Virus record (IMG/VR): IMGVR_UViG_3300045988_129623
Origin: a virus
Length of the DNA: 64,000 nt
Reading direction: 5' to 3' (one strand)
Shown: positions 3,560 to 60,610 of the stretch, in pieces
Layout of the letters: each line of letters begins with the position of its first letter
Numbering within the stretch: position 1 is the stretch's first letter
The notes under the pieces: generated by a model
The model's database searches: none
What the model was told of the DNA's origin: nothing
Seen by the model: only the letters and a program-made list of their open reading frames with translations
Program-made: the position numbers and the translations under genes

Positions 3560-3947
3560 ATTAGATAAAGTGGTTAATATCCTAAAAGAAAAAGGATTTG
3601 TAGTATATAGAAAGGGCGGGAAGGAGCCAGGTGTGTTTTACGCTAAAGAAGGTGACAGCCGGATAGGATTCGTTTATCCCAACAACGGATATATATATGA
3701 TAGAATAAAAATGTGGTCTTTTTCAAGGATATATAAACCACATAAGAAAACCGGGTCTTCGTGTTTAATGAGCGTCAGCGACGAATTTACGATAGAGAAT
3801 GCGATTAAGAACATAGAGGATAGACTGTGGGTGAATTATATAAAAGACGGTAACAGAAAACGACCAGAAGAATATAAAGATATAAGAGAATTTGTTGGTA
3901 GCTTCACTAAATTCTACAGCTCTGTAGAATTAGTTGAGGTTAAGTAG
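3537..3947 (+). CDS. hypothetical protein (136 aa). It ends in TAG and the next ORF is in the same frame
   Basis: ORF track. Confidence 0.65.
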   Translation: MKMNVENKLDKVVNILKEKGFVVYRKGGKEPGVFYAKEGDSRIGFVYPNNGYIYDRIKMWSFSRIYKPHKKTGSSCLMSVSDEFTIENAIKNIEDRLWVNYIKDGNRKRPEEYKDIREFVGSFTKFYSSVELVEVK

Positions 3948-4025
3948 TTTTCCATGCGAGTTAGTTGCCGGCACTGGTCCGTGAAGATAGGTGCCGTTTT
4001 TTTTATTCAAGAAAGGAGGACAAAG

Positions 4026-4277: not shown

Positions 4278-4540
4278 AAAAGATAAAAGTAGACAAAGTG
4301 ATATTATATTACATGGATCGGGTAGACCCTGACGGGAACCTATACCGGTTCTATGTATATAAAGACATGGCATCTGGAATAGAATACTTTTGCACGGAAG
4401 AGACAGGTAATATGACTATACCAATCGGAGAAGGAAAGTATATTGAAATCGTGCCAAGGGAAATAGTGAAAATACCGGTAAGGGGATATAGGAAGCTTAC
4501 TGGAATATGGAATCGTGAAACATGTAACGGGAAGGGATGA
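4274..4540 (+). CDS. hypothetical protein (88 aa)
   Basis: ORF track; ATGA overlap. Confidence 0.6.
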   Translation: MKKIKVDKVILYYMDRVDPDGNLYRFYVYKDMASGIEYFCTEETGNMTIPIGEGKYIEIVPREIVKIPVRGYRKLTGIWNRETCNGKG

Positions 4541-4775
4541 TATAGGCTTTTTAATTATTTCAAATACAAGCCGACCCTATGTTATTTTAAAAAAGCTGGA
4601 CATGATGAAAATGGGAACACAAGATACGAAATATCATTATTTAATAGCATTATAAATGTGACAAGATATTTTAATCTGTGGAGAATGAAGCCAGGAAAGT
4701 ATGTTATGGTAACAAACGAGTGTGGAGCCTTGGATGTTATAAAAGAAAAATTTGACAACATAAATATAGTGGAAT

Positions 4776-5135
4776 ATGGATCTGAATGAATTGTACAAAG
4801 AAATAGAAAAAGCAGAGATTGATCTGAATGCAAAAAGATTAAAGTACATCAAAGAGGCATTAGTGGAGAACGGTGGAAGTATAAAGCTAAAATTTAAAAA
4901 ATGGGGAGAAGATAATAATGCGTTTGACTTTGATGATCAGTTTCCGGTGATAATAGAAATTGCTGGGATTCCTATGTTTTTAACGGAGGTGTATGTCAAA
5001 AAAAACGATTTTCGTATGGTTCTGCTGGACTATGATGATATGACTTTAGGTGATTTTGATAATACAGGGGAAAATGAACAGGTTGCTTATTTTATTAACT
5101 ATTGCTTAAATCAAGACAAAGATGGGAAAGAGTAG
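4776..5135 (+). CDS. hypothetical acidic protein (119 aa)
   Basis: ORF track. Confidence 0.65.
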   Translation: MDLNELYKEIEKAEIDLNAKRLKYIKEALVENGGSIKLKFKKWGEDNNAFDFDDQFPVIIEIAGIPMFLTEVYVKKNDFRMVLLDYDDMTLGDFDNTGENEQVAYFINYCLNQDKDGKE

Positions 5136-5310
5136 AAAAGATTATGAGAAGTTTCTTAACTCCATATCTCCAGATAGAGACGATGAGGCATGGATCATTG
5201 GAGGAAAGAACAGGTATTGCGGTAGAGAGAATTATGATACTATGATCAAAAGGTATGATCCTATTGGTTTTAACGTAGGATACAGGGAGTGGGCAGAGCA
5301 GCCAGGGTAA
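5122..5310 (+). CDS. hypothetical protein (62 aa), ending in a GC-rich island
   Basis: ORF track only. Confidence 0.4.
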   Translation: MGKSRKDYEKFLNSISPDRDDEAWIIGGKNRYCGRENYDTMIKRYDPIGFNVGYREWAEQPG

Positions 5311-5555
5311 GGAGGCGCCCGTCCTGCCATGAGGCCAGCCTGGCTGTTCGTGGCCAGGGCCATACATTAATCAGATAGTGAACGGCGAAAACAATACATA
5401 AAATGGGAAACGAATTAAAACTTAACAGCGCAGAAGAAGCAGAAGTAATTTTAAGAAATGGTGGCTGATTATAAAGGTCGCATATATGAATATTACGAGT
5501 TCAAGAGAGAGGTCATTGATAAGATAAGATAATTATATACCTAAAATAATAGTTT

Positions 5556-5870
5556 ATGACATTCAAAGAATTTATGAAAGAAGTGGGCTATAACCTACTG
5601 ACTACCTTTTGGGAAGATTTTAGTATAGCCGACAAGTATGGTATAGTAGGTGTCAAAGATACCTACAGACGTGCGTTCAATGAATGGAAAGACGATTATA
5701 AGTTCTTCACGGAATTAACGCTCGTACTGAATCATAAAATATGGCAACATTACGAAAGCGATCGTGAACTGGCTGCATTGTATGACCGGTTGTGGCGGGA
5801 AGCCGACGAGTATGCCATGAACAATTTTAAGGGAGAAGAGCTTGATTATTATTACAGAGTAACAGATTAG
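5556..5870 (+). CDS. hypothetical protein (104 aa). It ends in TAG and the next ORF is in the same frame 9 nt later
   Basis: ORF track. Confidence 0.7.
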   Translation: MTFKEFMKEVGYNLLTTFWEDFSIADKYGIVGVKDTYRRAFNEWKDDYKFFTELTLVLNHKIWQHYESDRELAALYDRLWREADEYAMNNFKGEELDYYYRVTD

Positions 5871-5879
5871 AAAGTGATT

Positions 5880-6332
5880 ATGAAAAATACGATAGTAACA
5901 GGTAGCCTAATTGTATTCAGCGACGGATTTGTTTGGAAAATATTGTCCAACGAAAAAGCCTACAAGATATGGGTGTCAGCAGAAAATGAAGATTTTGAGT
6001 TATACAAGGTGAGGGTAGATGATGAGTCTGAGTCATCGATAGAGAGTCTTGAAGATTTACAGGATGCCTTTAAACAGGGTCATTATGTATGTATAGAAGT
6101 AGGCAAGCTACCGTATAGCATAGGTTTGAATTACTTACGAAATCTGCAAGAGATGTCGGTGACAGCCGTGGATGATCTAATGGGATTAAAAGAACGTAGC
6201 AGGGAAGAGGCATTTAACATCATTCAAGAGTGGACCAAAGAGTTTACAGAGAAATATGGGAATTATTATTTTGATGGCTCATACTATGATGAAATAGATG
6301 CATTTATCGAAGAAAAATTAAGAACTATTTAA
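5880..6332 (+). CDS. hypothetical protein. The ATG at 5880 is used; the track has a GTG at 5874
   Basis: ORF track. Confidence 0.7.
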   Translation: MKNTIVTGSLIVFSDGFVWKILSNEKAYKIWVSAENEDFELYKVRVDDESESSIESLEDLQDAFKQGHYVCIEVGKLPYSIGLNYLRNLQEMSVTAVDDLMGLKERSREEAFNIIQEWTKEFTEKYGNYYFDGSYYDEIDAFIEEKLRTI

Positions 6333-6343
6333 AATATAAAGAC

Positions 6344-7153
6344 ATGGAAGACGATCTTATTACAACAAAAGAAGTAGGCGATTATCGCATTAAAGTGTAT
6401 TATTGCCGTGATTCAGAATGTCCTATAACTAATTGGGGTTTGTTTGGGTCATTCTTTTTTGAATACTCAGATACACATCGATTGCATGATGAATGCAATT
6501 GGAAAACTTTCTTCTACGATAACAAGCATAATCTTAGAGATGTTATTGATGCTATTGTAATGAAGCATATAGAACAGAAAGACATTGTAAAATATTTAAA
6601 GAAAGGGGAAGCGAATGGGATCTCGTTCACATACAACAGAGGTGGCAATGTATGGGAGTTGAAACATAAGACAAGTCTATATATAGGTCAAGAGTTTTCA
6701 CCAGGTGATTTGAAGGACTTTGATTGCAGAGGAGAATTAATAGAGGATCTGGATGATGAAGACCTGTTAGATATCATATCCAAATATGGAAAAGATGTGG
6801 TAGCTATAGAGTGGTCGACAAGGGGTTATAATCAAGGTGATTATATAAAAGGGATAGCATACGTTACAAAAGAAAAATATGATAATGAAGTCTGCAACAA
6901 AGAAGGAGACTGGAAAGAAGATTGTGCCAAGATTATAGATAATGAAGTAAAGTCCATAGGTATGTGGATGTGGGGAGATGTAAAAGGGTACGTTCTTGAA
7001 AAGAAGGTAGCATTTACCAAGAAATACAAAGACGAATCAAGAGAGGATGAAGATTGTGAAGAATGGGAAGAGGTTGATTCTTGCTGGGGATGTTATGAGG
7101 AGACAGATGAATTGATAAAGGAAGTCATGATAGAGAATGGCTTAGAAGAATAG
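6344..7153 (+). CDS. hypothetical protein (269 aa). Its TAG stop is followed by a 33-codon in-frame open stretch through a GC-rich island, ending at a TAA near 7252
   Basis: ORF track; downstream frame read by eye. Confidence 0.8.
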   Translation: MEDDLITTKEVGDYRIKVYYCRDSECPITNWGLFGSFFFEYSDTHRLHDECNWKTFFYDNKHNLRDVIDAIVMKHIEQKDIVKYLKKGEANGISFTYNRGGNVWELKHKTSLYIGQEFSPGDLKDFDCRGELIEDLDDEDLLDIISKYGKDVVAIEWSTRGYNQGDYIKGIAYVTKEKYDNEVCNKEGDWKEDCAKIIDNEVKSIGMWMWGDVKGYVLEKKVAFTKKYKDESREDEDCEEWEEVDSCWGCYEETDELIKEVMIENGLEE

Positions 7154-7297
7154 GTTATAATGGCTGATAGTGACGGACGCCACAGGAGACAGGTGGGTAA
7201 AGTGCGAAGAGCTCCGGTTCAGGGGAGACGGGGCCTGCTTTGCGTGGCGTAAGGCTACAGTAGATGAAATTGTTGAACATTTTAAAAACAGATAATT

Positions 7298-7711
7298 ATG
7301 GGATATATATGTACAAGATGTGGTGGAACAAATGTTGTCTGTGAAGCCATAGTAAATCCGAATACTGGAAAAATAATAGATTATCTTGATGAATCTTTCA
7401 TGCATGCTATTTGCTCGAATTGTGAAAACGAGGTGATAATATCCAACATTGAAGGAGTCAAACATGAAATTGATTTAAGGTTTCATGAATTTGTAGAAAA
7501 AACAGGTAAGGAGCCTGAATACGTAGAATGTCAGATTGTATGGAAAAAGACAGGAGATGAACAAAGAAAGACAATAAAACTATCATTGGGCATTAACGAT
7601 GATGACAATGATGATGTTTTTTATTATTGCAATGGGATAGAATCGTTTAAGCAACTTACTGAATACGGAGTGGGAGAATTTATCGTAACATTTTGTTGGA
7701 GTTTCTTTTAA
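7298..7711 (+). CDS. hypothetical zinc-ribbon protein (CxxC...CxxC)
   Basis: Cys pairs CTRCGG and CSNCEN. Confidence 0.7.
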   Translation: MGYICTRCGGTNVVCEAIVNPNTGKIIDYLDESFMHAICSNCENEVIISNIEGVKHEIDLRFHEFVEKTGKEPEYVECQIVWKKTGDEQRKTIKLSLGINDDDNDDVFYYCNGIESFKQLTEYGVGEFIVTFCWSFF

Positions 7712-7724
7712 AACCTATACAGAT

Positions 7725-8090
7725 ATGAAAATAATAAAAATTCCTATTACAGAGCAAAACAGAGAAGTCTATTGGTCTAGAAACAAAGATAAGAAGGCTT
7801 GGGAGAAGTTAATGAGTGAGTGCCCATCCATGACATCAAAAGAGTTTTGGAATAATGAATGGGAAGAATTTGATAAAGAAGAGATTTCGACGCATTGGTA
7901 TTTCATTGTTGGCAAACCGGAATCGATAATAGATGAGTTGATTAATTTGGAGATAGGGGACACAAACGTATTCTATCCACATATAAAGGAGAATAGACCT
8001 TGGGATATTGAAGAAATGGACTGGTATGATCTTAGAGAACATGCCAATACCATGAGTGATTTTATTCAGAAGTTATATAACTACATTTAA
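7725..8090 (+). CDS. hypothetical protein (121 aa)
   Basis: ORF track. Confidence 0.7.
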   Translation: MKIIKIPITEQNREVYWSRNKDKKAWEKLMSECPSMTSKEFWNNEWEEFDKEEISTHWYFIVGKPESIIDELINLEIGDTNVFYPHIKENRPWDIEEMDWYDLREHANTMSDFIQKLYNYI

Positions 8091-8101
8091 AAAAATGCTT
8101 T

Positions 8102-8575
8102 ATGAATGGAATAATATTTGAATTAGAAGAAAAGTCGAAATATACAGGGAGATACATGGATGGGGAAATCTCCTATAATAACACATCTATAGATTACATG
8201 AAAGAAATACGAGAATGTGACAGAAAGAGTGAGATCAAGGATTTATTAAATGACCCTTGTCTTGGTAAAATATTTGAAAAGGGGGAAGTTGATGATGAAA
8301 TTATATATAATGGTAATATAGAAGATGTAAAAGAGGAATGGATGCGTGCTATACAAAATGGGGTAGATAAAATGAATGTTAACAAAGATATGAATGGGCA
8401 TAATCTTATTTATGTAATAAAATATGGGATTTGCAGATACGCGTATCGTATTTGCATTAATTCATATCCGGGATATGTTGTAAAAGATCCAATAACACTA
8501 ATAGAATGGGTTCAAGGTTTAAAGCCTGGAACCATCATTAAAATAAGAGGAATATTCATTTATCATTTTTTATAA
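8102..8575 (+). CDS. hypothetical protein (157 aa)
   Basis: ORF track. Confidence 0.7.
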   Translation: MNGIIFELEEKSKYTGRYMDGEISYNNTSIDYMKEIRECDRKSEIKDLLNDPCLGKIFEKGEVDDEIIYNGNIEDVKEEWMRAIQNGVDKMNVNKDMNGHNLIYVIKYGICRYAYRICINSYPGYVVKDPITLIEWVQGLKPGTIIKIRGIFIYHFL

Positions 8576-25037: not shown

Positions 25038-25296
25038 TATGGAAAATTACAAAAACACTTTAAACGAGGTAGTGGTGATCGAATCGTCACCAGAAACGTA
25101 TTTTGTTTACGCTATTCGTAATGCTATTCGTATCTCTAAATGCGCGTATCCGACAGCCAAGAAAGTAATTTTCAAAAGAGAGGACATAGAGGTAGAGATC
25201 TCAGAAATGGAAACTGAAAGCAGTTTGTATGAAAAGTTTAAAGAAAAACAAAAGAATAGGGTATGGAACTTAATGAGCGCCAACAACGGGTTTTAA
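25021..25296 (+). CDS. hypothetical protein (91 aa)
   Basis: ORF track. Confidence 0.55.
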   Translation: MKQADNMENYKNTLNEVVVIESSPETYFVYAIRNAIRISKCAYPTAKKVIFKREDIEVEISEMETESSLYEKFKEKQKNRVWNLMSANNGF

Positions 25297-25829
25297 GAGG
25301 CGAAATTTGTCCTTATTGCGGAAGAGAAACTGAGCTGGTAAATGCCGATAAAATATATAGCAGAAAAGGCTTAGGGATGGTTATGATGTGCAAACCATGC
25401 AACGCTTATGTCGGTGTTCATGAATCAGGGCCGAATAAGGGAAAAGCTAAAGGCCGGCTTGCGGGGCCATCACTGAGATCTCTTAAGATAAGAGTCCATG
25501 CCGAACTTGACAGACTATGGTCTACGCCGGAGGAACGGAAAAGGATGTATAAAGATTTATCTGAATTTCTCTTTATACCGGAAGAGTACACACATATAGG
25601 TATGTTTGGCGAGAAGACGATGGGAAAAGTCTTTCAGTTCTGTCATGTAAACAAAGAACGATCAGGTTCGAGAATAGAATGGCATAAACCTGGAGATAAG
25701 TGCCCTAATAAAAACAATCAAATAGTGTCAGGCAGTAGCGCATGTAGAGGATGTCCTGAGTATCTTCATGATGAGAAAGACGGGTATGTCTGGTGTGATC
25801 CTGATATGAGCTACGGCAGGTTGAAATAG
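25263..25829 (+). CDS. zinc-finger protein (188 aa)
   Basis: CPYCG...CKPC and C-terminal C..C..H motifs. Confidence 0.7.
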   Translation: MELNERQQRVLRGEICPYCGRETELVNADKIYSRKGLGMVMMCKPCNAYVGVHESGPNKGKAKGRLAGPSLRSLKIRVHAELDRLWSTPEERKRMYKDLSEFLFIPEEYTHIGMFGEKTMGKVFQFCHVNKERSGSRIEWHKPGDKCPNKNNQIVSGSSACRGCPEYLHDEKDGYVWCDPDMSYGRLK

Positions 25830-25881: not shown

Positions 25882-26157
25882 ATGGGTAGATCGACAGAGT
25901 ACTACAGGACTCATCCCGAAGCCAGGAAGAAAAAGGCTAAAAAGGACAAGGAGATAAATGCCAGACCGGAACAGAAAGCCAAACGCCGAGAGCTTGGTCG
26001 TAAAAACTACGAAACGGACAAGAAGAAGGGTAAGGGCTGGAGAAAAGGAAAGGATTGTTCTCATACCAAGAATGGTCTTAGGTATAAATCAGTAAAAGCT
26101 AATAGGGGATCCAAATCGGATACGAAAGGTGACAAAAATGCAAGATCTCCGAAATAA
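25882..26157 (+). CDS. small highly basic Lys/Arg-rich protein (91 aa)
   Basis: ORF track; composition. Confidence 0.6.
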   Translation: MGRSTEYYRTHPEARKKKAKKDKEINARPEQKAKRRELGRKNYETDKKKGKGWRKGKDCSHTKNGLRYKSVKANRGSKSDTKGDKNARSPK

Positions 26158-26442
26158 TATACAAAAAGACAAATAGAATTTTACTTTTTTGTATATCCAG
26201 TTTTACTGGCCGGTTATTAGCCTAAGTGCTTCGAGCACTACGTTATCGGAGAATGTATAGTTACCCTGGAGTGTTTATCCAAGCTCCAGGCTCTAAGGCA
26301 GGTGATTAAACAGTATTTGTATTTGGATACAGTGTTGCTTGTAAGAAACCTCTGAATAACATTGGCGATGGGTACTAACAGATTGAAATATATCTGACTT
26401 ACTACGAATAGTAGTTATTAATTAAAAATTAGTTTGTAACAA
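26158..26442 (+). ncRNA. candidate omega-RNA, the guide RNA scaffold of the IscB OMEGA system. It is a 285-nt non-coding leader directly upstream of iscB with several strong hairpins
   Basis: No ORF is present. The hairpins are at 26157-26196 (12-bp stem), 26225-26239 (AGTGCT/AGCACT) and 26265-26290 (CCTGGAG/CTCCAGG). This is the position and size expected for IscB omega-RNAs. Confidence 0.5.
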
Positions 26443-27702
26443 ATGGTGTACGTACAAGACATAGATGGTAAACCTTTGATGCCAACAACAAGGCATGGTA
26501 AGGTTAGAAGACTGCTTAAAGACAAAAAGGCAGTTGTTGTCAACTTATGTCCGTTTACCATCAAATTAATGTACGTCACATCTGATTACAAACAGGAAAT
26601 TGTGTTAGGCGTTGATGCTGGAACTAAACATGTTGGTCTATCAGCTACGACGAAAAGCAAGGAGCTTTACGCAAGTGAAGTTATTCTGAGAAATGATATC
26701 ATTAATTTGCTTTCGACAAGAAGAGAATTGAGGAAAGCGAGAAGGAATAGGATAAGGTATAGAAAGCCGAGATTTAATAACAGAATAAAGTCGAAGCGCC
26801 AAGGATGGATAGCTCCATCTGTTTGTCAAAAAATTGATTCCCATATTAAGGTTGTCAGTTTTATACATTCTATCCTTCCTGTTTCAAGATTAATTATAGA
26901 AACTTCTCAGTTTGATACTCAAAAGATTAAGAATCCTGATATATTGGGAAAAGAATACCAGCAAGGCGAGCAACTTGGATTTTGGAATGTTCGAGAATAC
27001 ATACTTTTTCGTGATGGTCACAAATGCCAGCATTGTAAGGGAAAATCGAAAAATCCTATTCTTAATATCCACCATATCGAATCGCGAAAGACTGGTGGAG
27101 ATTCACCTTCTAATTTGATTACTTTATGTGAAACTTGCCATAAGGAGTACCATAAGGGGAATATTAAATTGAAGGTAAAAAGAGGAACTTCACTTCGTGA
27201 TGCGGCCGCGATGGGAATCATGAAATGGAAGTTATTCGATAAATTGAAGTCATTATATCCAAACGTTAGTATGACATTTGGATATATAACGAAACATAAT
27301 CGGATAAAACATAGAATCGAAAAGTCCCATGTTTCTGATGCATTTGTTATCTCAGAGAATTTTAAAGCAAAAAGGCTTGGATATCATTTCAAGATGAAAC
27401 TCACACGGAGACATAATAGGCAAATTCATAAAATGAAGATGCAAAAGGGAGGGATCAAAAGAATGAATCAATCACCATTTAGGGTATTTGGGTTTAGACT
27501 ATTTGATAAAGTAATGTTTTATGGTGAAAAACGATTTATTTACGCAAGAAGACTTTCTGGTAGTTTTAAAATAAAAGATATAGATGGGGAAAATGAGAAA
27601 AATATATCATATAAAAAATTAAAATATATAGGACATGGATTGACTTCTATTGAAGTAGATCAATCATATGGATATAAAGCAAATACACATAATAACGAAT
27701 AA
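26443..27702 (+). CDS. iscB: IscB RNA-guided nuclease (OMEGA system). It has an N-terminal PLMP domain, RuvC-I, an Arg-rich bridge helix, RuvC-II, an HNH domain and RuvC-III
   Basis: GKPLMPTTRHGKVRRLL (PLMP motif); LGVDAGTKHVGLS (RuvC-I aspartate); RRELRKARRNRIRYRKPRFNNR (bridge helix); LIIETSQF (RuvC-II glutamate); CQHCKG...NIHHIESRKTGG...LITLCETCH (HNH); SHVSDAF (RuvC-III aspartate). Length is 419 aa. Confidence 0.9.
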   Translation: MVYVQDIDGKPLMPTTRHGKVRRLLKDKKAVVVNLCPFTIKLMYVTSDYKQEIVLGVDAGTKHVGLSATTKSKELYASEVILRNDIINLLSTRRELRKARRNRIRYRKPRFNNRIKSKRQGWIAPSVCQKIDSHIKVVSFIHSILPVSRLIIETSQFDTQKIKNPDILGKEYQQGEQLGFWNVREYILFRDGHKCQHCKGKSKNPILNIHHIESRKTGGDSPSNLITLCETCHKEYHKGNIKLKVKRGTSLRDAAAMGIMKWKLFDKLKSLYPNVSMTFGYITKHNRIKHRIEKSHVSDAFVISENFKAKRLGYHFKMKLTRRHNRQIHKMKMQKGGIKRMNQSPFRVFGFRLFDKVMFYGEKRFIYARRLSGSFKIKDIDGENEKNISYKKLKYIGHGLTSIEVDQSYGYKANTHNNE

Positions 27703-27707
27703 TCACA

Positions 27708-28844
27708 ATGGAGTTTGGAACATTCGATAACAAAACGACAAAAGTTAACATCCGGAATATTTTCAAAACCTCCAAACAGGTTATGGAGGAGGCGTATGAG
27801 AATATCTTAAAATACAGGCGGGGAGAGCTTATCCCCGCTAAAACCGGATACGATTATATTGATGAGGCTTTGCTTGGAGGTATTTTCCCTCAGCATGCTA
27901 TTGCCATAGGAGCCCGGCCATCTGTAGGTAAATCGTATGTGGCCCAAAAGATATTGGAAAATGTGATGAATCCGATGATCAACCCGCAAGCAGAAGATTA
28001 TTTTCTTGTTAATTGCGAGTTCGAAATGAATCCTCAAGATCTTCTTCTTCGCAGAATGAGCCAGGATATGAAAAAGCGGGCTCCTGAAATATTAAGAAGG
28101 CAAGATTCTAATACAGTAGAAGAGATGAGGCTGTTTGAAATCCTTCAAGGTGAAATCAGAAATAATATAATATACATCGATGCTCCGTGTACGGTAAAAG
28201 AGTTTGAGGCGGCTGTGTATCATATAGCTACCAAACATAAAGACAAACGTCTTATAATATTTAAAGTCGATCATATTGCTTTGATAAAAAGAATGGGATT
28301 AGATCCTAAGTCGGCTATAGATGATTTGGTGGCGGTTATGAACGAAGCTAAATTAGTATATAAAAACATATTTTTCCTCATCATATCCCAATTCAACAGA
28401 GAAATAGAAGGAAGGATAAAAAGCCCACAAGAGCAGCCTCCGCGTCTTTCTGATTTTTACCAGTCTGATACGCTGGGTCAGTTATGTACGTTAATGATAG
28501 GCTTGCACAATCCTCGTAGGTACGGGCTGGATAAGTATATGATATTTGGGAAAGATTGGTATCAGACTCTTGATAGGTTTAAAACTGAAAACAAAACATC
28601 ATTCAGGACAGCCGGACTGGTGTTTCATCATATACTGAAGGTAAGGCAAGTTAGTATGGAAGAGCTTACTAATACAATCCACCCAGAGATACTGCCGGGA
28701 CATGGATGGATGTACGGGGAGGGCGGGACGAAGTTCGTGAACCCCAACCAGCCGCCGACGCCGCCCAAGCTCTATACTGTGGAAGACGTTACGAACAATC
28801 AAGATCAAGAACAAGAGACAAAGGAAGAACAGTCATTGTATTAA
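27708..28844 (+). CDS. DnaB-like replicative helicase (RecA-fold ATPase domain)
   Basis: Walker A IGARPSVGKS; Walker B-like IIFKVDHIAL. Confidence 0.65.
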   Translation: MEFGTFDNKTTKVNIRNIFKTSKQVMEEAYENILKYRRGELIPAKTGYDYIDEALLGGIFPQHAIAIGARPSVGKSYVAQKILENVMNPMINPQAEDYFLVNCEFEMNPQDLLLRRMSQDMKKRAPEILRRQDSNTVEEMRLFEILQGEIRNNIIYIDAPCTVKEFEAAVYHIATKHKDKRLIIFKVDHIALIKRMGLDPKSAIDDLVAVMNEAKLVYKNIFFLIISQFNREIEGRIKSPQEQPPRLSDFYQSDTLGQLCTLMIGLHNPRRYGLDKYMIFGKDWYQTLDRFKTENKTSFRTAGLVFHHILKVRQVSMEELTNTIHPEILPGHGWMYGEGGTKFVNPNQPPTPPKLYTVEDVTNNQDQEQETKEEQSLY

Positions 28845-43733: not shown

Positions 43734-46700
43734 CTACTTGTAGCTAACATCATCGTCCCCTTCCGAATCAGGAGTAGCGCCGATGAAGAACATCATTGAC
43801 TTGTTGTTCGTCTGCTGCCACCAATTATAGGCGCGCGCTACGTCTTCCGGCGTCTTGATATTATACCATTGTTTGATAAACGTCTGTTTGGCGAGTTGCC
43901 TAAATAACTTAGACTCTCCCTTGTATGTACCGGATGTTACTTTATCAAGTGAATAATTCCTAAGATCGGTAAGATCCTTCAGTTTTCGCCCCATAACAAA
44001 CGGATCGTTAATGATATCTACCACGTTAAGCTCCATAATAAACGGCATCTGTGAAGCTATTTCGTTTATGGTTCTGAATCCGACATAGGATCCAAATTGA
44101 GTAAGCCAACTTTCTTCGTTTTCATCATCATCACGCCATCCGGCAAGAAGCATAGATACGGCCTGCATGATAAGGAACGTGCCGGCATAGACACTGAGAC
44201 GTTTGAGATTGGTTTTTTCTACCTCATTCATATTGTCTTTATTTTCATTCCAGGCATCTATGATGTTTTTCATACCAGACTCGGAAGCCAGGCTAAATGT
44301 TTTGGCTATCATATTCTTTAACGTAATTGACAACCCTTCCTCTTCTTGCATTGTCTGGAAATTGAAGCCACGTCTTTTCCACAGACGTTGAGCCGACAGC
44401 ACCAACCATCCTCGGTGGGCGGTCATGAACCTGGCTATCCAGTTGCGCGATGCGGCAGTTCGGTTTTCTTCATTCAAAGATCCGTTGCATATCTGCGACA
44501 AGCTACGAACTTGATTTCTGGTTATAGCCATCTGGGTTTCTACTTCCTCAACAGTAACACCCGATCCTGGCTTTACAACCACCTTCCCATCCACGACGTC
44601 TACCATACTCCATAAAGTACGATCTTTTAATGCGTTCCATTCTCTTTTTATGGTACTCTGTTCTTTATTGCGTTCTTTTTCCATCTTGAAATCTTGGAAC
44701 GTGTAGAACCGGCCTTTGTAATAACGAACATTGTCCATAGTAGCAATCATAACCTGCGGATCAAGAGGGTAGTTCAGGATTTCCATAAAAGCATACATAG
44801 GCGAACGCATTAAGGTCCTGGCCGCTCTATTGTATCCGGCACCATACATACGATTTCGGATATTGAATATCCCCATTCTCTCACCTATGACATATAATTT
44901 GCTTTTCCTATCTATGTCTCCGGTTTCTGCTATACAAGATGGAGCAAGGCGTGAAAATTCAGCCGATGCGTATTTAAGGGAGTCTTTGCTTATATACTGT
45001 CCTACGGCAGATTCCATGATGAGGTTGATATGACCTGTTAAGGCGCCGGTAGCTGCCACAAATGGAGACAGTGCCAAGTTCATGACCGACATAAACCTTT
45101 CAACAGCCATCATAATTCTTGTAAGGTCTACCGTATATCCTCCGATGTTCACCGTAAGTTTTTTGGTGTTCATCCTAATGCCATAATAATGATCGTTGAA
45201 GAAGTCCCTGAACATCTGATATGCTTGGGTTGCTTCAGCCTTTTTACCACCTTCAAATTGTTTATTTAGTAACATCTGCTCCAGTCCTTGAGCGAGCTCT
45301 ATAGACTTCTGCTTTTCGTTGTATAACGATGACTGCATCATAAGCATCGAATAAGAGTAGCCAAAATCGTGAGATACATCATCTTGGTTCTCCAATTCAT
45401 ATATGTAGTATTTAGGTATAGACCTAAGTCTGTCTTCCGGGTCATATACTTCCCCTTGCCTGGTCTTACCATATAGAGAATCGTCTACTCTGTCCAGGCA
45501 CAGATCTGATACAAAATTACGAACCGTATTTTTGAAGTTAATACCCAATCCTTCCATACGTTCTATGTCTTGTTTTGATATCTGTGGAATAGCATACAAA
45601 TTGGGACTCTGCTCTTTGTATAGATCAAGGGATTGTCTTTTTATTTCCTTGAGTTTTTGAATCATATTCCACTGCTCTACGTTTTTAGTAGCGACCTCAT
45701 TACCATCAGCATCATATTTGATACCAAAGTCATTGAGATACGATTCATCACGATACAGGCTTTTCTTAGGCATGCGATGACCATACCCATGATCTTTTAC
45801 ATAATCAGGATTACGACCGCTATTTTCGGCTTCAGATTCAGCCACCCATGCCCTTGCAGGGTCGAAAGACAGGTACGATATGTCCATGCCATAATCTTGG
45901 GTGGATGTACCGTTTTGTACGTCCTTAACCATCTGCGCCACATCTATCTCACCTCGACCAATTTTGTCGATCATAGCCGCATATCCGGTAGGCGCCATGC
46001 GTTTATAGTATGAAAAGACCTGGCTCCTGGCAAATTCATTAACAATAGCATTAGCCTCTTCTATACCTGATTCTCTTGTGTTATTTAAAAACAAGCTGGC
46101 CATTTTAGCATTGACGGCATTCCTAAAATCTCTACCGTCTAATTCTTTGCTTATTCCAAGCTTTTCTGACAAGTAGTTGGTTTCAGATACGGTAAACAGA
46201 TACCGGTTATCAGCAGCTTTGAATAACTTATCCCTTAAGGCTTGAATCCTTTTTGCTTTCTTCGCCGTAGTATGACGTTGTACGAACTTCCATTCCACTT
46301 CCTTGGAGTCAGCAAGAGCATTTAAATAAGACTGATTTACTTCGTTTTCAGCCTTACTGCTTTTAGTAAGGTACTTATCAATATCTTCAAGACCCACCAT
46401 CTTAGCATAATCTATTAAGATAGCGTAATCGGCTTCAATAGCTTCAGATGCGGCCCTAAAAGCATCTCTTTCAGATGAGGTAAATGTCGCTTCGTTAATC
46501 TCTCCGATATCAGCCACATCGCGATTGTTTCCGATTATTTCCTTGATAATAGCCTTATTTTTTTCTATATCTTTCACAATAGAATCCACGTCAGTCGCAT
46601 CTCTATCACTTGTCGTAGAACTAATGATATCATGCGCCATTTTAAGATACGAAGCCTTGTTATTTGATTCGGTACGTGCCGACTGTTCTGATTCTACATC

Positions 46701-49700
46701 ATTCCAAAACCGATCGTTGAATGACAGGTGACCTCCCAACATAAGTGTCTTCAGCGCAGCTTCTCCTCCAGACTCGCTCTGAATCGTTCTTAATTTTTGC
46801 AAAAACGATTCTGATACGGCATTAGTGGCATTATTTGATTCCTTTCTCCAAACTTCATTTATAGCTTGTATTTCTTTGGCCATCTTAAGTTGGTCGCCGG
46901 TTTTTTCCACTCTCCTGGTTCCTACATATATGTATTCTGAAGCTGCTTCCTTACGTTGTTTACGAAGCAGTCCTTCTTCTTCGTAATTGCTGCTTTTAAA
47001 ATAGGCAACCTCATCAAAATTACCACCGCTATCAATAAAAGGCTGCCTCAATATCCGTTTTTGCCGGGATAGGGCATTAAGGTATTCTTTGGTTGTTTGA
47101 GAAACCGGATGCCCTAATTCTTCTTCAGCCTTTTTGTATATGGATTCCATTCTTGTGGCATAACTTTCACTAAATTCCAGTTCTGAATTTTCAGCATCCC
47201 ACTTCTCCATCTGTTCTGTATAAATCTTTTCCTGCTCGATGGTAAAAATATCGGTATTAACCCTATCGGACGACGGTTTAAATTTAGCGTTCTCAGTAAC
47301 CGTATTTCCGTCCTTGTCAACTACTTCTCTTTTAAATACGTAATTACGGTTATTGTCAACCACATCATTGATTTCTTCTTCTGATATCTCTATGTTCATG
47401 GCGGTCGCAAACGCTCGCATCTGCGCCAGCTTCTTATTACGATCGTATTTAGCCATATCAAGGACACTACGAAGGTAATTAGAAGTTTTGCCGTCTACTT
47501 TCTGAAGCAGTTTTTCAAATTCAGATTTGTTAAAACCATGCTTTTTCACATATGCCAGAAAATCGGATATAGCGGGCTGGGCATTCACCATCGCATTGTA
47601 ATTGTCTTTGGCAATCATAGCTCCAAGAGCGTTGTTGAACGGGCTGGAAGAATGCTCTAATATACCGAACCACCTACTTATCCAAGAAACATCGTGTTGA
47701 ACCTTATCAAAGAACTCTTTTACTCTCTTTACCTTATCTGCCGGCACATGAAGTTCGTTCATTAACTTGTCAAGCAACGTACTTTCATCAAGATCTTGTA
47801 CTGATTTAATATCAGACTGAATACCGTTGATGTCGGCAATGACGGTATTGATCCTATTTGTATAATCCTGCTTTTCACGCTCATCAAATTCGGTACTTCT
47901 GTTACGGATATATCCTCGAAGATCGTTCATGATCGGAAGAACCTGATTGTTGATAATATCTACGTTCTTTCGATCATTGGTATTGAAATGAAGCTTACCG
48001 TCTTTGGTATCACCATGAAGGATAGTATTTACTACGTTGCTTAAGTATCTAACCTGAGCTTCGGCTGTGGAGATCATGCTGTTCATGGCGGCCGCCATCT
48101 CATTCTTGTCTATTTCGGTCTCTACCTTATTTATCTTATCTTCTATGGTCTTAAGCTGGGCAAGGGTCATAGACGTAGTTACAGCCCTATCAGAGCTTAT
48201 CTGACGTAAGTCTCTTAACGTTTTTCTCAATGCCCGGATCTTAGACTCAAGAAACTTGTTCTTCTTCATAGAAGAAAGGGAATATAATGTAAAATCATTA
48301 TCCTTCAAAAGAGAAGTATCAAATCCTTTATCTATGTCGGTAATAGCAAGATCACGAATATTTTTAATAACGTTATTCAAATCCTGTCTTTGGGTTGATA
48401 AAGCTGATTTAAGCCAGTTTACAATTCCAGAGAGAAGCTGCCGGACGCGCCCCAGGAAGGAGGTGGGCTCTACCGGCGCCTGTGCTGTGCCGGTCTGCAT
48501 CTCCCTGGCGAGGATCTTTCCAAGAATTTCTCTCCTAACAGCATTATCAAGTTCAGAGCCTTCATATACCTTACCGTATGTATTATAATACTGACCTGCA
48601 TACTGATTCCATTCTTCAGTGCCTTCTACATCTTGCAAAACAGATTCAACAGCATTCTGATCTCTGTACGCCTCTACGAGAAAGTGTGCTGTTTCTTCTA
48701 CTAAGTCAGACAAAGTAGCATCTTCACCGACTGCTATTACGTTATTGGCAATATCCGCCAATGCCTTAGCAGAAGGTTCGTGTCCGTATTTAGTTTGGTA
48801 CTTCTCTATATAATCGGTCATGCCAACGACACTAACGCCCAGCGTTTTCAGTATCTCAACAATAGAATTTCGTTGATTACGTTCCTCTTGGCTATAATCC
48901 GATACTATCTTAGCTTTAGTATCAGCATAAAGATCATTGTCTTCTAATATAAATGAAACTACAAGCGCATCAAAGTGATCGTATTTAGCATCCAATTCAT
49001 TGTATCTTCCAGACTTAAGATCGCTCTTTATCTGCTCCTTGCTAACTCTTTCTGTTCCTCCGGTGGCGAGTCTCATAGTTACCTTACTATTATCCAATGA
49101 ATTTATGGTTATCATACCCTGGTCGTTCATGGAAACATCGGAACCAAAATGATTACGGAGCTCAGTGTAGGATAAGGCTGAATTGAAAAGTCTAATTTGT
49201 CCTGTATGTCCTTCTCCTGTAATATAATAGCTTCTTGTTTCCGGATCGAATATCTTGGATCCGGACAAAAGACCTTTCTTTATAAGGTAGTTAATTATAC
49301 CGCCTTTTGTTGATAAAGAAGTAGAAGCAGAAGCGGTCATGACCGGTATAAAAGACTTGGGATTATTAAGAACATACTTTCCAGCCTTGTAAGTAATGTC
49401 TGCCACTCCATCCACGGTAGATTCTTGAACGATGCCTGATAAGAATCCTATTCTGATATCATTCCCGCCAGAGCGAAGAGCTTCTCCGTAATCTTCAAAT
49501 AATTGATTACGATCATTCATAAAAAACAAACGAGGTTCTCCAGTCTGATACGTTACACCCACAGGATTAGAATCTGTTTCTGGTAGCTCTTCTGGACTAA
49601 ATATCTTAAGACCGTCTTTTATAACCATATAATTAACATCATTATCCTGTACCATAGATACGGGAGTGAAGTCCGAAGATATAGCATCTTGTAGATACTG

Positions 49701-57797: not shown

Positions 57798-60053
57798 TTA
57801 CCTGCATTCCAATTTATTAAGATCATCCAATTCAGACTTGCTTACGGTCATATCTTGCGTCAAGCCAGATCTGTTTTGGTATGGAGCGTAATCGGTTTCT
57901 ACCGTCTTAGCCTTCTGAGTAGAATCGTATTTCACCTCCGATTCGGTTCCTGTTAGATTTTGGTAGATAGAGCCGGAACTACTTTCGCCAACTTTAGTGA
58001 ACACCATGTCTCCTATTCTGATAAAATTATCATACAAACCTTCTACGATAACATTATCATCCTGCTTAGTTATGTTATGATCCCGAACCTCATTTAAGAG
58101 ATTAGGATGTTTCGTAAAAAGATCGTGATAGAAATCAGAACCGGCATATAACATATCATAATAATCCAAATAGAACAGATCTGTAAAAGAAGGATCGGTG
58201 CTGCTCATGCTATACTCAAATAACTGCTCACGATCATTACCTGCCAAAGATAGTTCAATTTGTTTTAACGTATCCGGATCTGAAACGGTAAGACCCAGTA
58301 AATGATCTGGTTTAAAGTCAAGATACTTGTATGCCCCTTCGTACACTTCCGTATTATGAAGCTTATTTTCAAGATAAGATTGGTATAAATCGAATAAGAG
58401 TAAAGGATTCTCTTTGTCCTGCTTTCTGTTTATGTATCGGCTAAACTCCCGTTCTTCATTAACATACGGGCTTCCAGGAACAACAAGATGACCGAACGCC
58501 AATCTGGTAGCATTCATCTCTTCCGTATTCTGAGAATCGGTATAAGACAGGACGTATTTTTTAATAGAATCAGCAAGGGCCTTACTATCTACGTTTTTCA
58601 CGCGGAGCTTATCTAAAACACCATCCTTAAAACAATATTCAGGATAGATACCAGGTGGGAAATAAGTTAGACTCCGCTTGGCAAGCTCGGCAGCTATATC
58701 GTACAAATCACCTAAATTATCTCTTTCTACCTTATGATATAGGTTTCCACCAAGATAAAGCAGAGAATGATTTTCAAATGCCGATACCGGATCTATGTCA
58801 GATTCCATATAAACGATATTCATATTATCCATATACTCTGGCAGAAACATAACACGGCGATCCTGGCTATCTCCAAGAACGTCATCGATAGCAGAAGCTA
58901 AGGTAGGAGCATAAGTATCATCGTTGCGCCTTGCTACATAAATATCAAGATCCAGCATCAAGCTATCAATTTTATTCAGCGATTCTTCTGTTCCGTCATA
59001 TGCCTTAGACACGCCTACGATATCTATACCAAGACCTACACAAGCCTCTTCTACATCCCATATCATACTTCTAAGGTCTTCTTCTGTATCAGCATTAACC
59101 CTGTTTAGAAAGGCTGATATACGAGCTCGTAATGACTCAGATCCAATAGGGCTGTAATAAGCATAATCTTGCAACTTTGATAATGACCGTCTCTTCCCTT
59201 CTACGATATTATTATCTTCTAAAGCCACAACCGGAACGATGTTCATATTCGAAAATTCGTTGAACAGCGACAAGGCAAAACTCTTATCCGACTGATATCT
59301 TTCAACTAACTCCGGATATGAATCAGATAAAGATTCGAAAGCAGCATCAAACTCTGAAGCAACACTAATACCTCCTACTGTATTTTTTATAACCTCGTAA
59401 ACTTCAGCCGGATTATATGATGCTCTCTTTCCTAATTTATTGAAGACACCATTTTTATACACAACAGGACCGTATGGTTTTTCTACGGTTGTGAAGTAAG
59501 ACTCTTTCCCGAGATCGTGTTCGTTATTGGAATAATCTAATAATAACCTCATAAAAGAGCTGACCTCATTAAGTACAGAAGGATTATCTAATATCCTACT
59601 TATCTCTGTCTCATTGTACAAGCCGGATCTCCTTAGATTTTCTTCATTTAGGATAAGATTACCATCCACATAAAAAGAGCTTCTAACTCTATTAATAAGA
59701 GATCGTATGCTATATATGGAATTGGATATCATAACATCTCTTACATCCTTAACATCCTGAGCCGTTAAGGGATCGGAAAAATAAGCCTGACGCTTCATAT
59801 ACGACAGCACATCTTCTAAAAGAGGTTCGCCATTAGGATCGGTATTAAACATCTCCCCTGGAGCCGGGTTATTCCAATGACCGTAATACGACAAAAAACC
59901 AGGAGTGTAAGCCTTAGCCCATACCTGAAGAGCCCGCTCGCTGTTTCCTAATACTTTTAAAGCACTTTCGTAAAGAACGGAAGGCTCACCGTTAGGAGCC
60001 TCAACCCGTTCTATTTTATTTTCCTTCTTTTCTATCTGACATTTGACACCCAT
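57798..60053 (-). CDS. large virion-associated protein (751 aa) of unknown function
   Basis: Uninterrupted ORF in the late block. Confidence 0.9.
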   Translation of the reverse strand: MGVKCQIEKKENKIERVEAPNGEPSVLYESALKVLGNSERALQVWAKAYTPGFLSYYGHWNNPAPGEMFNTDPNGEPLLEDVLSYMKRQAYFSDPLTAQDVKDVRDVMISNSIYSIRSLINRVRSSFYVDGNLILNEENLRRSGLYNETEISRILDNPSVLNEVSSFMRLLLDYSNNEHDLGKESYFTTVEKPYGPVVYKNGVFNKLGKRASYNPAEVYEVIKNTVGGISVASEFDAAFESLSDSYPELVERYQSDKSFALSLFNEFSNMNIVPVVALEDNNIVEGKRRSLSKLQDYAYYSPIGSESLRARISAFLNRVNADTEEDLRSMIWDVEEACVGLGIDIVGVSKAYDGTEESLNKIDSLMLDLDIYVARRNDDTYAPTLASAIDDVLGDSQDRRVMFLPEYMDNMNIVYMESDIDPVSAFENHSLLYLGGNLYHKVERDNLGDLYDIAAELAKRSLTYFPPGIYPEYCFKDGVLDKLRVKNVDSKALADSIKKYVLSYTDSQNTEEMNATRLAFGHLVVPGSPYVNEEREFSRYINRKQDKENPLLLFDLYQSYLENKLHNTEVYEGAYKYLDFKPDHLLGLTVSDPDTLKQIELSLAGNDREQLFEYSMSSTDPSFTDLFYLDYYDMLYAGSDFYHDLFTKHPNLLNEVRDHNITKQDDNVIVEGLYDNFIRIGDMVFTKVGESSSGSIYQNLTGTESEVKYDSTQKAKTVETDYAPYQNRSGLTQDMTVSKSELDDLNKLECR

Positions 60054-60079
60054 AATAATTAACTTTTTTGCAAAGTTAA

Positions 60080-60610
60080 TTATAAAACTGATTTATACAA
60101 TGACGGATCCCAAACTCCTTCTATATAAATCTCCGGAAAACTCAAACTGCCATCACGAAGAGTGGTGACTTCCAAGCTGGGAATGTTGAAAACAGTACTG
60201 GTACTACCAAACTCACCATTCAACTTGATAGCATTTCCGCTGTTATTAACCTCATAATAAAAATAACAATAATTTTCATTAATGCTTGGATCATATTCGT
60301 ACCAATATGTTAGATCTTGTATATGGTCTTCTATATTACCAATTTTGTTTTCACCTAATATAAAAATACCATTATTGCTATGATGATAAACCATAGATTC
60401 ATAACCACCATAATTCCAATCACTATTAAACATTATGTAACTAACATCGGAACCATGATCTTTTAATACAAGCCCTATATGTATATGAATTTTATTAAAC
60501 TGACATACATAAGGTCTTTTTCCTCCAAGCCTTTTTATATCTTCATTAGATAACTTATTATAACATCCTCCCACGAAATTATCCGCAGCATTAAAAAATC
60601 TCCTTCTCAT
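60080..60610 (-). CDS. hypothetical protein of the MRRRF family (about 176 aa from the ATG at 60610), Tyr/Asn/Gly-rich
   Basis: Starts MRRRFFNAADNF. It is homologous to the 42901-43519 and 42564-42896 products. Confidence 0.8.
   Translation of the reverse strand: MRRRFFNAADNFVGGCYNKLSNEDIKRLGGKRPYVCQFNKIHIHIGLVLKDHGSDVSYIMFNSDWNYGGYESMVYHHSNNGIFILGENKIGNIEDHIQDLTYWYEYDPSINENYCYFYYEVNNSGNAIKLNGEFGSTSTVFNIPSLEVTTLRDGSLSFPEIYIEGVWDPSLYKSVL

Follow-up and report, generated by a model that had tools for sequence, protein, structure and literature searches.

Cas9 is presumed to descend from IscB and its omega-RNA, and to our knowledge the natural role of such systems has been shown experimentally only for bacterial insertion sequences (IS) and, in the case of TnpB, for plasmids. 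IscB cleaves donor joints and shares its target-adjacent motif (TAM) with the transposase TnpA, and the omega-RNA is bounded by the right end (RE) of the transposon (PMC10055086). The TAM of GstIscB is TTCAT, located 5' of the left end (LE), which reads ATGAA on the iscB strand (PMC10055086). Homing logic has been shown for bacterial IscB and TnpB (PMC10055086), TnpB-driven and TnpA-independent IS spread among plasmids is described at least in the summary given in PMC13565253, and homing between phages has been suggested on theoretical grounds (PMC13565253). Here we analyzed a 64,000-nt stretch of phage DNA (IMG/VR record IMGVR_UViG_3300045988_129623, hereafter the window), viewed on the + strand, in which an iscB gene and an upstream RNA scaffold form a unit at 26145-27707. 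The genome hosting this element is that of a ~150-kb human-gut phage, with the insertion between a small open reading frame (ORF) and dnaB. Comparison with related loci suggests that the unit is probably a non-autonomous IS200/IS605-type (ISC) IscB element that spreads or persists by cutting, under RNA guidance, the empty alleles of co-infecting phages.

The IscB protein and its omega-RNA scaffold

By every protein criterion examined, the predicted product of the ORF at 26443-27702 was confirmed as a genuine IscB, as a sequence-only reading of this DNA had proposed from its motifs. The motifs and catalytic residues quoted in that reading were all found intact in the 419-aa protein: the PLMP motif at residues 11-14, an Arg-rich helix, the RuvC-I D58 within GVDAG, the RuvC-II E153 within IIETS, the HNH motifs CQHC, IHH, and CETCH with H210 as the catalytic His, and the RuvC-III H296 and D299 within KSHVSD. 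Profile searches likewise identified an IscB, with matches to Pfam RRXRR (PF14239; E = 2.1e-58, profile positions 1-174 of 174 covered), to Pfam HNH (PF01844; 9.5e-09, residues 195-238, inserted between RuvC-II and RuvC-III), and to the NCBIfam equivalog guided_IscB (NF040563; 357.4 bits against a cutoff of 175, E = 5.8e-107, residues 2-303). Solved IscB structures were matched by phmmer (11hr at 1.6e-43; OgeuIscB, 7utn and 7xht, at 2.1e-41). In alignments with 11hr and 9liq, the motifs of the RuvC-I Asp, RuvC-II Glu, HNH His, and RuvC-III His and Asp were those of the window protein, and H210 aligned with the catalytic HNH His of the solved IscB chains. The RuvC catalytic residues of OgeuIscB are, as we take them to be numbered, D61, E193, H340, and D343. 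Its catalytic HNH His is H247 (PMC9640706). Residues ~335-419 fell outside all sequence alignments to solved IscBs, and this C-terminal region of ~85 aa is presumed to be the TAM-interacting part of the protein. D58, E153, H210, H296, and D299 were invariant across all 44 distinct relatives checked, and the ratio of nonsynonymous to synonymous substitution rates (dN/dS) between IscB subfamilies was 0.05-0.14. The invariance of the catalytic residues together with the low dN/dS indicates that the nuclease is being maintained.

An omega-RNA had been proposed directly 5' of iscB on the same strand, and this placement was borne out. The Rfam HEARO family (RF02033), today recognized as the IscB omega-RNA, matched 26154-26379 of the + strand at 100.9 bits, above its gathering score of 83 (E = 5.7e-21, model positions 1-211 of 211), and was the sole Rfam match anywhere in the 64-kb window. 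The 285 nt between the upstream stop (26157) and the iscB ATG contained no + strand ORF of 40 aa or more, as had been observed, and this leader gave a single-sequence fold z-score of -2.9 relative to shuffles. RNAalifold applied to 25 distinct phage copies yielded 68 pairs, 25 of them with compensatory (two-sided) changes. Three hairpins singled out in the sequence-only reading were all real, those at 26225-26239 and 26265-26290 being HEARO helices and that at 26157-26196 the inner hairpin of the guide-adaptor region.

The 5' edge of the scaffold was resolved by covariation and by comparison with bacterial relatives. Rfam placed the P1 stem 9 nt inside the element boundary, with low confidence. 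A stem beginning at the first nucleotide of the element (P1b; Table 1) scored 0.299 for covariation (shuffle mean, 0.174), a value reached in 0 of 500 shuffles and above every slid control, with two-sided changes at three pairs and the same register as in bacterial relatives, in which scaffold nucleotide 1 pairs with the U immediately before UAGCC. In the closest of these relatives, the scaffold (RUCAAC...) begins exactly at the point where two copies from one genome (L174 and L178) diverge, and bacterial copies diverge exactly at GTCAA. The bacterial comparison and the covariation assign the 9 nt at the start of the element to the 5' side of the adaptor stem, and the idea of a single-stranded linker or a fixed guide seed at this position was rejected. 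The alternative stem P1a (AAUAAU/GUUAUU) was 96.7% paired, with one-sided and no two-sided changes. A candidate pairing of UCUCCGA with UCGGAGA (26246-26252) was not kept in other subfamilies and was rejected. A promoter scan found 7 sites against 9.7 expected by chance, and the scan does not cover Bacteroidota-type promoters. One related copy (L040 ~3885-4000, at the insertion site that we call D') had lost the omega-RNA core between the adaptor region and the terminal hairpins and retained an intact 411-aa iscB ORF; it may be a recently disabled element.

Presence, absence, and junctions of the element

The sequence-only reading took iscB for a fixed phage gene, which did not survive comparison with related genomes. 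The closest GenBank phage, csAssE-Sib (OR575929.1; 151 kb; human gut), is 96% identical to the window on both flanks, lacks 26143-27758, and carries a 92-aa ORF that overlaps dnaB by 23 nt. When IMG/VR loci were ranked by DnaB similarity, 77 of the closest 80 were empty and 3 occupied. Relatives of the unit occupied many other places in the same phage family. An IscB protein search of IMG/VR phage contigs found 182 relatives, of which 80 loci were retrieved, nearly all on 80-160 kb contigs and with 73-100% pairwise protein identity. These represented at least 13 insertion sites, and two later ones brought the number to at least 15 in this family of ~150-kb gut phages. Some insertions were exact, as revealed by empty alleles with a slash marking the junction: ..GATAGGTA/ATGGCTAAG at site C (ATGGCT follows the junction), ..AATGAAC/ATGTTCGG at site M (ATGTTC follows), and ..GCTGATG/ATGAGGTT at site F (ATGAGG follows). 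Only site E had an empty counterpart in csAssE-Sib, and BLAST with the flanks of 14 sites found no empty version of the other insertion sites inside the window. Our literature search found no paper on IscB homing in phages or on csAssE-Sib.

Several contigs carried two IscB copies. A second omega-RNA-like stretch (L067 8773-8927) and a second partial iscB (L074 1-966) were each within 4-5 kb of the first copy on their contigs, and an IscB at site B (L054 4001-5152) had an in-frame internal deletion, with 383 versus 406 aa.

Outside IMG/VR, a wider protein database gave more than 8000 matches. The top 120 were at least 80% identical over the aligned region except for one 520-aa entry at 71%, and the sole informative name among them was 'RRXRR protein [Bacteriophage sp.]'. 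The best relative in 185,579 species genomes of bacteria and archaea (one genome per species) was 63% identical, and the best in GenBank phages was 52% identical. The scarcity of close relatives in these collections and their abundance on IMG/VR contigs point, within the databases searched, to a phage-borne radiation. PHROGs and GenBank label homologues 'HNH endonuclease' or 'hypothetical' (e.g., phrog_119), and IscB-like genes are common in phages under the former label.

The ends of the element were placed by different comparisons. On the left, alignment with csAssE-Sib and the 77 empties put the breakpoint at about 26142-26146, and paralogues at other sites aligned from 26145 on, giving a sharp start. 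Element starts share AT(N)2C(N)3-4AATAAT, the window version being ATCTCCGAAATAAT from 26145. The right boundary was set by analogy with the paralogues at sites C, M, and F, for which the empty sites are known, and a right-end motif, TCACAATG, is common to the window element and the D/D' subfamily. Each boundary is uncertain by 1-2 nt because the element and the right flank both begin with AT.

The position of iscB in a replication module, between the 91-aa ORF and the DnaB-like helicase, was seen as described earlier, as was the 5-nt gap between the iscB stop at 27702 and the DnaB-like start at 27708. In empties, the upstream ORF ends in ...ARGDSK-stop or ...ARGSEK-stop with a 23-nt overlap onto dnaB, and the native dnaB start is an ATG inside ...AAAAATGCAAGAGGAG, upstream of the insertion point. 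In the occupied allele, the first 13 nt of the element encode the last 4 codons and stop (SPK-stop) of the upstream ORF, which acquires the new end ..ARSPK-stop, and the dnaB start codon is re-supplied at the element junction. As the ends of the element give a stop upstream and an ATG downstream, insertion between tightly packed genes would be tolerated.

The left junction of the window copy is exact. On the right, a segment of about 45 nt (27711-27758) replaces 27-31 nt of every sampled empty, with homology resuming at 27759. An exact 20-mer of this segment occurred in only 5 IMG/VR contigs, all 5 of which carry the element, and the same scan found no empty allele with the occupied-type DnaB N terminus. 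Possibly, such a replacement arose when a flank deletion created a new guide, when two insertions close to each other recombined, or when a diverged flank was co-converted. Two pairs of related copies also differ at a flank. L073 (site L) and L070 (site I) have the same right flank, with the left flank of L073 lying 65 nt further upstream, which gives a different guide; this new guide abuts ATGATA in 13 of ~36 empties. L022 and L025 (D versus D') likewise share a right flank, and their left flanks differ by a 13-nt deletion. In both pairs the deletion (65 nt and 13 nt) stops precisely at the element boundary and leaves the two copies with different guides.

Predicted guide and TAM, and competing explanations

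Because the scaffold starts sharply at the element boundary, 26145, the preceding 16 nt (26129-26144) would be the guide, and from the architecture of described IscBs (PMC9640706, PMC10055086) we infer that they serve as such. The sequence 5' of the scaffold is local flank and differs from site to site. At the window's site (site A), the predicted guide is the end of the upstream ORF and hence matches the same place in element-free relatives: 44 of the 77 empties matched perfectly, 32 had one mismatch 2 nt from the junction, and 1 had a single TAM-distal mismatch. Inside the window, the only match to the guide was the self site, and the guides of the other 13 sites had no target with a TAM there. 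The site-L guide and flank (GTTGGACAATATTTTC) also have a 16-nt match, with one mismatch and far above chance expectation, near ~5936 on the - strand of the window; CAAACA, not ATG, comes next, and the stretch probably belongs to a homologue of the gene that precedes site L.

ATG was found directly 3' of the element at all 12 independent sites with a readable right boundary, in the contexts ATGGCT, ATGTTC, ATGAGG, ATGGTA, ATGAAT, ATGGAA, ATGGGA, ATGGAT, ATGAAT (site E), ATGGCA, ATGGTATGG, and ATGGAG (window). At site I, a tRNA is next downstream, so the ATG there is not just a start codon. These contexts suggest that the family TAM reads ATG on the iscB strand, and the ATG-adjacent position of the phage elements agrees with the TAM of GstIscB. 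Empty alleles at two sites depart from the expected target. All of the ~31 empties at site I (e.g., L025, L029, and L037) read ..GCCGAT/GTGGTA.., and the occupied allele reads ..GCCGAT/element/ATGGTA... One type of empty at site A (e.g., L109, L085, and L113) reads AGGATCTGAAAAATAAAATAG versus AGGAGATAGCAAATAGGATAG in the others, which amounts to 7 substitutions within 16 nt at the predicted cut and TAM side in a background otherwise 97-99% identical. The variant stretch GATCTGAAAAATAA faintly resembles the element start GATCTCCGAAATAA, and this allele type may have arisen as a resistance allele, as a footprint, or by chance. We hypothesize that both the site I GTGG alleles and the site A alleles with 7 changes are resistance alleles, as they appear to be.

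In the mechanism that we favor, the omega-RNA would carry as its guide the 16 nt of phage sequence just upstream of the scaffold, GTGACAAAAATGCAAG. During co-infection, IscB and the omega-RNA would cut an element-free allele at the guide match beside a TAM, and recombinational repair from the occupied genome would copy the element with its linked right flank, which would constitute homing or gene drive; a cut left unrepaired would be a handicap for the competitor phage. The occupied allele would be protected because the scaffold, not a TAM, follows its guide-matching DNA. Moves to new sites, of the kind seen as exact insertions before ATG in relatives, would need a Y1 TnpA in trans. Inter-phage competition, homing, and attack on host or plasmid DNA had all been suggested as functions from the sequence. 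Of these we favor homing, given that the guide is the element's own flank and matches the empties; nothing points to a host or plasmid target.

The source of such a transposase was sought by tblastn with the TnpA proteins of IS608, IS200, and ISDra2, which found no Y1 TnpA in the window (as noted earlier), in csAssE-Sib, or within 4 kb of any of the 80 retrieved copies. Only ~1.5% of iscB genes adjoin tnpA, so that absence in cis is the rule (~98.5%; PMC10055086). With no TnpA in cis, the element would be non-autonomous. The sole Y1 TnpA in this phage family belongs to an IS608-like TnpA and TnpB element present in L085 (339-1988), L112, and L157, inserted exactly at window position 25646/25647 inside a DUF3268 zinc-finger gene (25263-25829). 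Its TnpB has 379 aa, and its 132-aa TnpA is 40% identical to IS608 TnpA (E = 2e-31). The phage family thereby hosts both TnpB- and IscB-type OMEGA elements. Two bacterial relatives of the window IscB have a TnpA nearby and are at most 49% identical to it. A conserved hairpin marks the omega-RNA-side end of the phage elements (26157-26196 and equivalents).

Several observations weigh against the homing reading. After the guide match, all 77 sampled empties at the window's site read AGG, not ATG, and 32 of them carry the junction-proximal mismatch; a scan of IMG/VR for a susceptible empty allele, GCAAG/ATGG, found none, its 17 matches all being in unrelated contexts. If ATG is required, the present empties would be refractory, which agrees with the rarity of the element at this site, where it was found in 5 contigs and the window. 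The right junction of the window copy is not that of a clean insertion, and site E (45 nt), D' (~135 nt), and L073 also show such replacements. No cognate TnpA for the IscB element was found in the searches above; the IS608-like enzyme is an unlikely candidate, as the junctions of its element (TTTAC/...GTCAA/ on its own top strand, like the TTAC and TCAA of IS608) are of the TTAC and TCAA type and not ATG. No shared hairpin was seen at the end opposite the omega-RNA, and since right ends differ between subfamilies, no conserved TnpA-binding LE can be identified. The P1b stem of the window element is weak (5 of 8 positions pair), and the guide, the TAM, and the homing step are themselves read from sequence.

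The refractory empties raise the possibility that the window copy is a stranded relic, which arrived by recombination or old transposition, faces targets that are now resistant, and passes on by vertical descent only, with an IscB that is perhaps active but inconsequential. The AGG in 77 of 77 empties, the mismatches in 32, the rarity of the element, and the lack of an ATG-bearing empty allele in the sample all fit this account, and we regard it as unlikely while giving it serious weight. Against it, the ORF and the omega-RNA are fully intact, the subfamily TAM may accept AGG, and the 99.4-99.6% identity of the five other occupied contigs over the locus speaks for a recent common ancestor and not for decay. 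We find it less likely still that this is an ordinary IS kept by restorative homing within one genome (the model of Meers et al. 2023), in which a TnpA acting in trans, supplied by the host or a co-resident element, excises and re-inserts the element, IscB only re-cuts the vacated donor in sister copies of the genome, and spread between phages is incidental. That model is established for GstIscB (PMC10055086), some relatives are inserted exactly beside a shared ATG motif, and a Y1 TnpA does circulate in this phage family; however, the element of that TnpA has junctions of another type, none of the 80 copies has a TnpA within 4 kb, right ends vary between subfamilies, and relatives of more than 63% identity are absent from the 185,579 species genomes and abundant on phage contigs.

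A domesticated, fixed gene encoding an immobile IscB that the phage directs against DNA of its host, of plasmids, or of unrelated phages, with a guide untied from the insertion site, would account for a window without TnpA, for the 5 nt between the iscB stop and the dnaB start, and for purifying selection on the protein. We consider it very improbable, as the locus is polymorphic (77 of its 80 closest relatives are empty), the family occupies at least 15 sites, some by exact insertion, the sequence 5' of the scaffold is local flank that changes with each site, and the guide's only match in the window is the self site. The 'HNH endonuclease' label in PHROGs and GenBank would suit a plain, protein-guided HNH homing endonuclease with a mere terminator or leader upstream. 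This identity has practically no probability left and is refuted by the full-length RRXRR/PLMP match, the split RuvC with its inserted HNH, the guided_IscB score above the equivalog cutoff, and a leader that scores above the HEARO gathering threshold and covaries. Homing into empty alleles of co-infecting phages is the reading that we retain as probable. More tentatively, it is possible, though we lean against it, that the phage lineage harbors an IscB radiation restricted to phages whose members are natural RNA-guided gene drives between co-infecting gut phages, which would home upstream of ATG, spare essential genes by supplying their own stop and start signals, and be engaged in an arms race recorded in metagenomes. 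Possible signs of such a race are AGG or GTG in place of ATG, seed mismatches, the 7 changes in 16 nt at the cut site, and new guides arising after deletion of the adjacent flank (L073; D versus D').

Table 1. Coordinates of the mobile unit, its RNA and protein components, and the adjoining genes in the window
Feature	Position	Strand	Remarks
Mobile unit	26145-27707	+	~1563 bp: scaffold, iscB, and 5 nt TCACA
Guide (predicted), 16 nt, GTGACAAAAATGCAAG	26129-26144	+	Phage-derived; final codons of the upstream 91-aa ORF, abutting the element boundary
Omega-RNA scaffold	26145-26415	+	HEARO match and RNAalifold helices
Guide-adaptor stem P1b	26145-26152 with 26209-26217	+	Covariation test
Alternative stem P1a	26153-26158 with 26213-26218	+	AAUAAU/GUUAUU, 6 bp
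Inner hairpin of guide-adaptor region	26157-26196	+
Nexus pseudoknot	26220-26224 with 26369-26373	+
Stem-loop	26225-26239	+	HEARO helix
Central stem	26242-26251 with 26350-26360	+
Stem-loop	26265-26290	+	HEARO helix
Stems	26298-26342	+
Terminal hairpins	26379-26396 and 26401-26415	+
iscB coding sequence	26443-27702	+	419 aa: PLMP, RuvC-I, bridge helix, RuvC-II, HNH, RuvC-III, ~85-aa C-terminal region
ATG adjoining the element 3' end	27708-27710	+	DnaB-like start codon; TAM position
Right-flank segment, DnaB codons 2-17, EFGTFDNKTTKVNIRN	27711-27758	+	Occupied alleles only
Upstream 91-aa ORF	25882-26157	+	phrog_6437, function unknown
DnaB-like replicative helicase	27708-28844	+	Pfam DnaB_C 1.3e-16; phrog_37407

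Some features of the phage background were recorded alongside. csAssE-Sib has no IscB and carries two annotated TnpB genes and a diversity-generating retroelement (variable repeat, template repeat, and reverse transcriptase) beside a tail-fibre gene, the coordinates of these features being 58986-60125, 64190-65413, and 45751-47816. Its annotation includes crAss-like structural names (muzzle and ring proteins) and Bacteroidetes-associated carbohydrate-binding domains, hints that its host belongs to the Bacteroidota. In the window, 4441-8552 (~4.1 kb) has no counterpart in csAssE-Sib, which has ~190 bp there; of its eight small + strand ORFs, one exceeded a Pfam cutoff, with a fragment-length match to EcoRI restriction endonuclease (23.2 bits versus 22).

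Comparison with known systems

The IscB/HEARO (OMEGA) kind is itself already known. New here are an abundant gut-phage clade, polymorphism at multiple sites, ATG-adjacent insertions, and occupied and empty alleles side by side, the last of which let guide, TAM, resistance alleles, and co-converted flanks be read directly. OMEGA elements as homing drives between viruses become testable with this material. The family also offers compact IscB variants of 406-419 aa with an apparently simple, predicted ATG-type TAM, and it cautions annotators that a gene labeled 'HNH endonuclease' in a phage replication module may encode an RNA-guided enzyme.

Compared with OgeuIscB, which comes from a human-gut metagenome (7utn, 7xht), the window IscB keeps the domain order and all catalytic residues, and its HEARO-family omega-RNA likewise has a guide-adaptor hairpin, a nexus pseudoknot, and a central stem, with the predicted guide directly 5' of the scaffold. 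The two proteins are nonetheless distant, aligning by phmmer in two stretches (2.1e-41), and the window IscB is shorter (419 versus 496 aa), lacks an insert at ~114-144 of the OgeuIscB chain, and has a C-terminal region that cannot be aligned. The window adaptor is a ~73-nt three-way junction with two possible registers, the predicted TAM is ATG-like as opposed to NWRRNA, and the window element resides in a phage.

GstIscB of ISGst (Geobacillus stearothermophilus; Meers et al. 2023, PMC10055086) resembles the window system in being a non-autonomous iscB element whose omega-RNA is bounded by a transposon end, in the use of flanking DNA as guide (predicted here), in a TAM with ATG on the iscB strand (the reverse complement of TTCAT; again predicted here), in the same proposed homing logic, and in catalytic residues at nearly the same numbers (D58 and H209/H210). 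Geobacillus has a known cognate TnpA and conserved LE and RE, whereas for the phage element neither a cognate TnpA nor a conserved LE was found, and the role shown there is restorative homing after excision from a bacterial chromosome, whereas the alleles compared here come from different phage genomes.

Among phage systems, there is a parallel with the free-standing homing endonucleases of T-even phages (Seg and Mob; intronless homing), whose genes also lie between conserved phage genes and are variably present. The diverged stretch of neighboring gene that travels with the window nuclease gene resembles co-conversion. Seg and Mob read DNA through protein and distinguish self from non-self by substitutions in the target, whereas the window element would recognize its target through RNA copied from its flank and would be self-protected by absence of a TAM. 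Finally, the IS605 TnpB plasmid drive (Mears et al. 2025), as far as its summary in PMC13565253 describes it, shares with the mechanism favored here that an OMEGA element spreads without TnpA, entering homologous sites that are still empty on replicons in the same cell. According to that summary, the plasmid system involves TnpB, plasmids, and experiment, and the phage system described here is one of IscB, phages, and population genomics.

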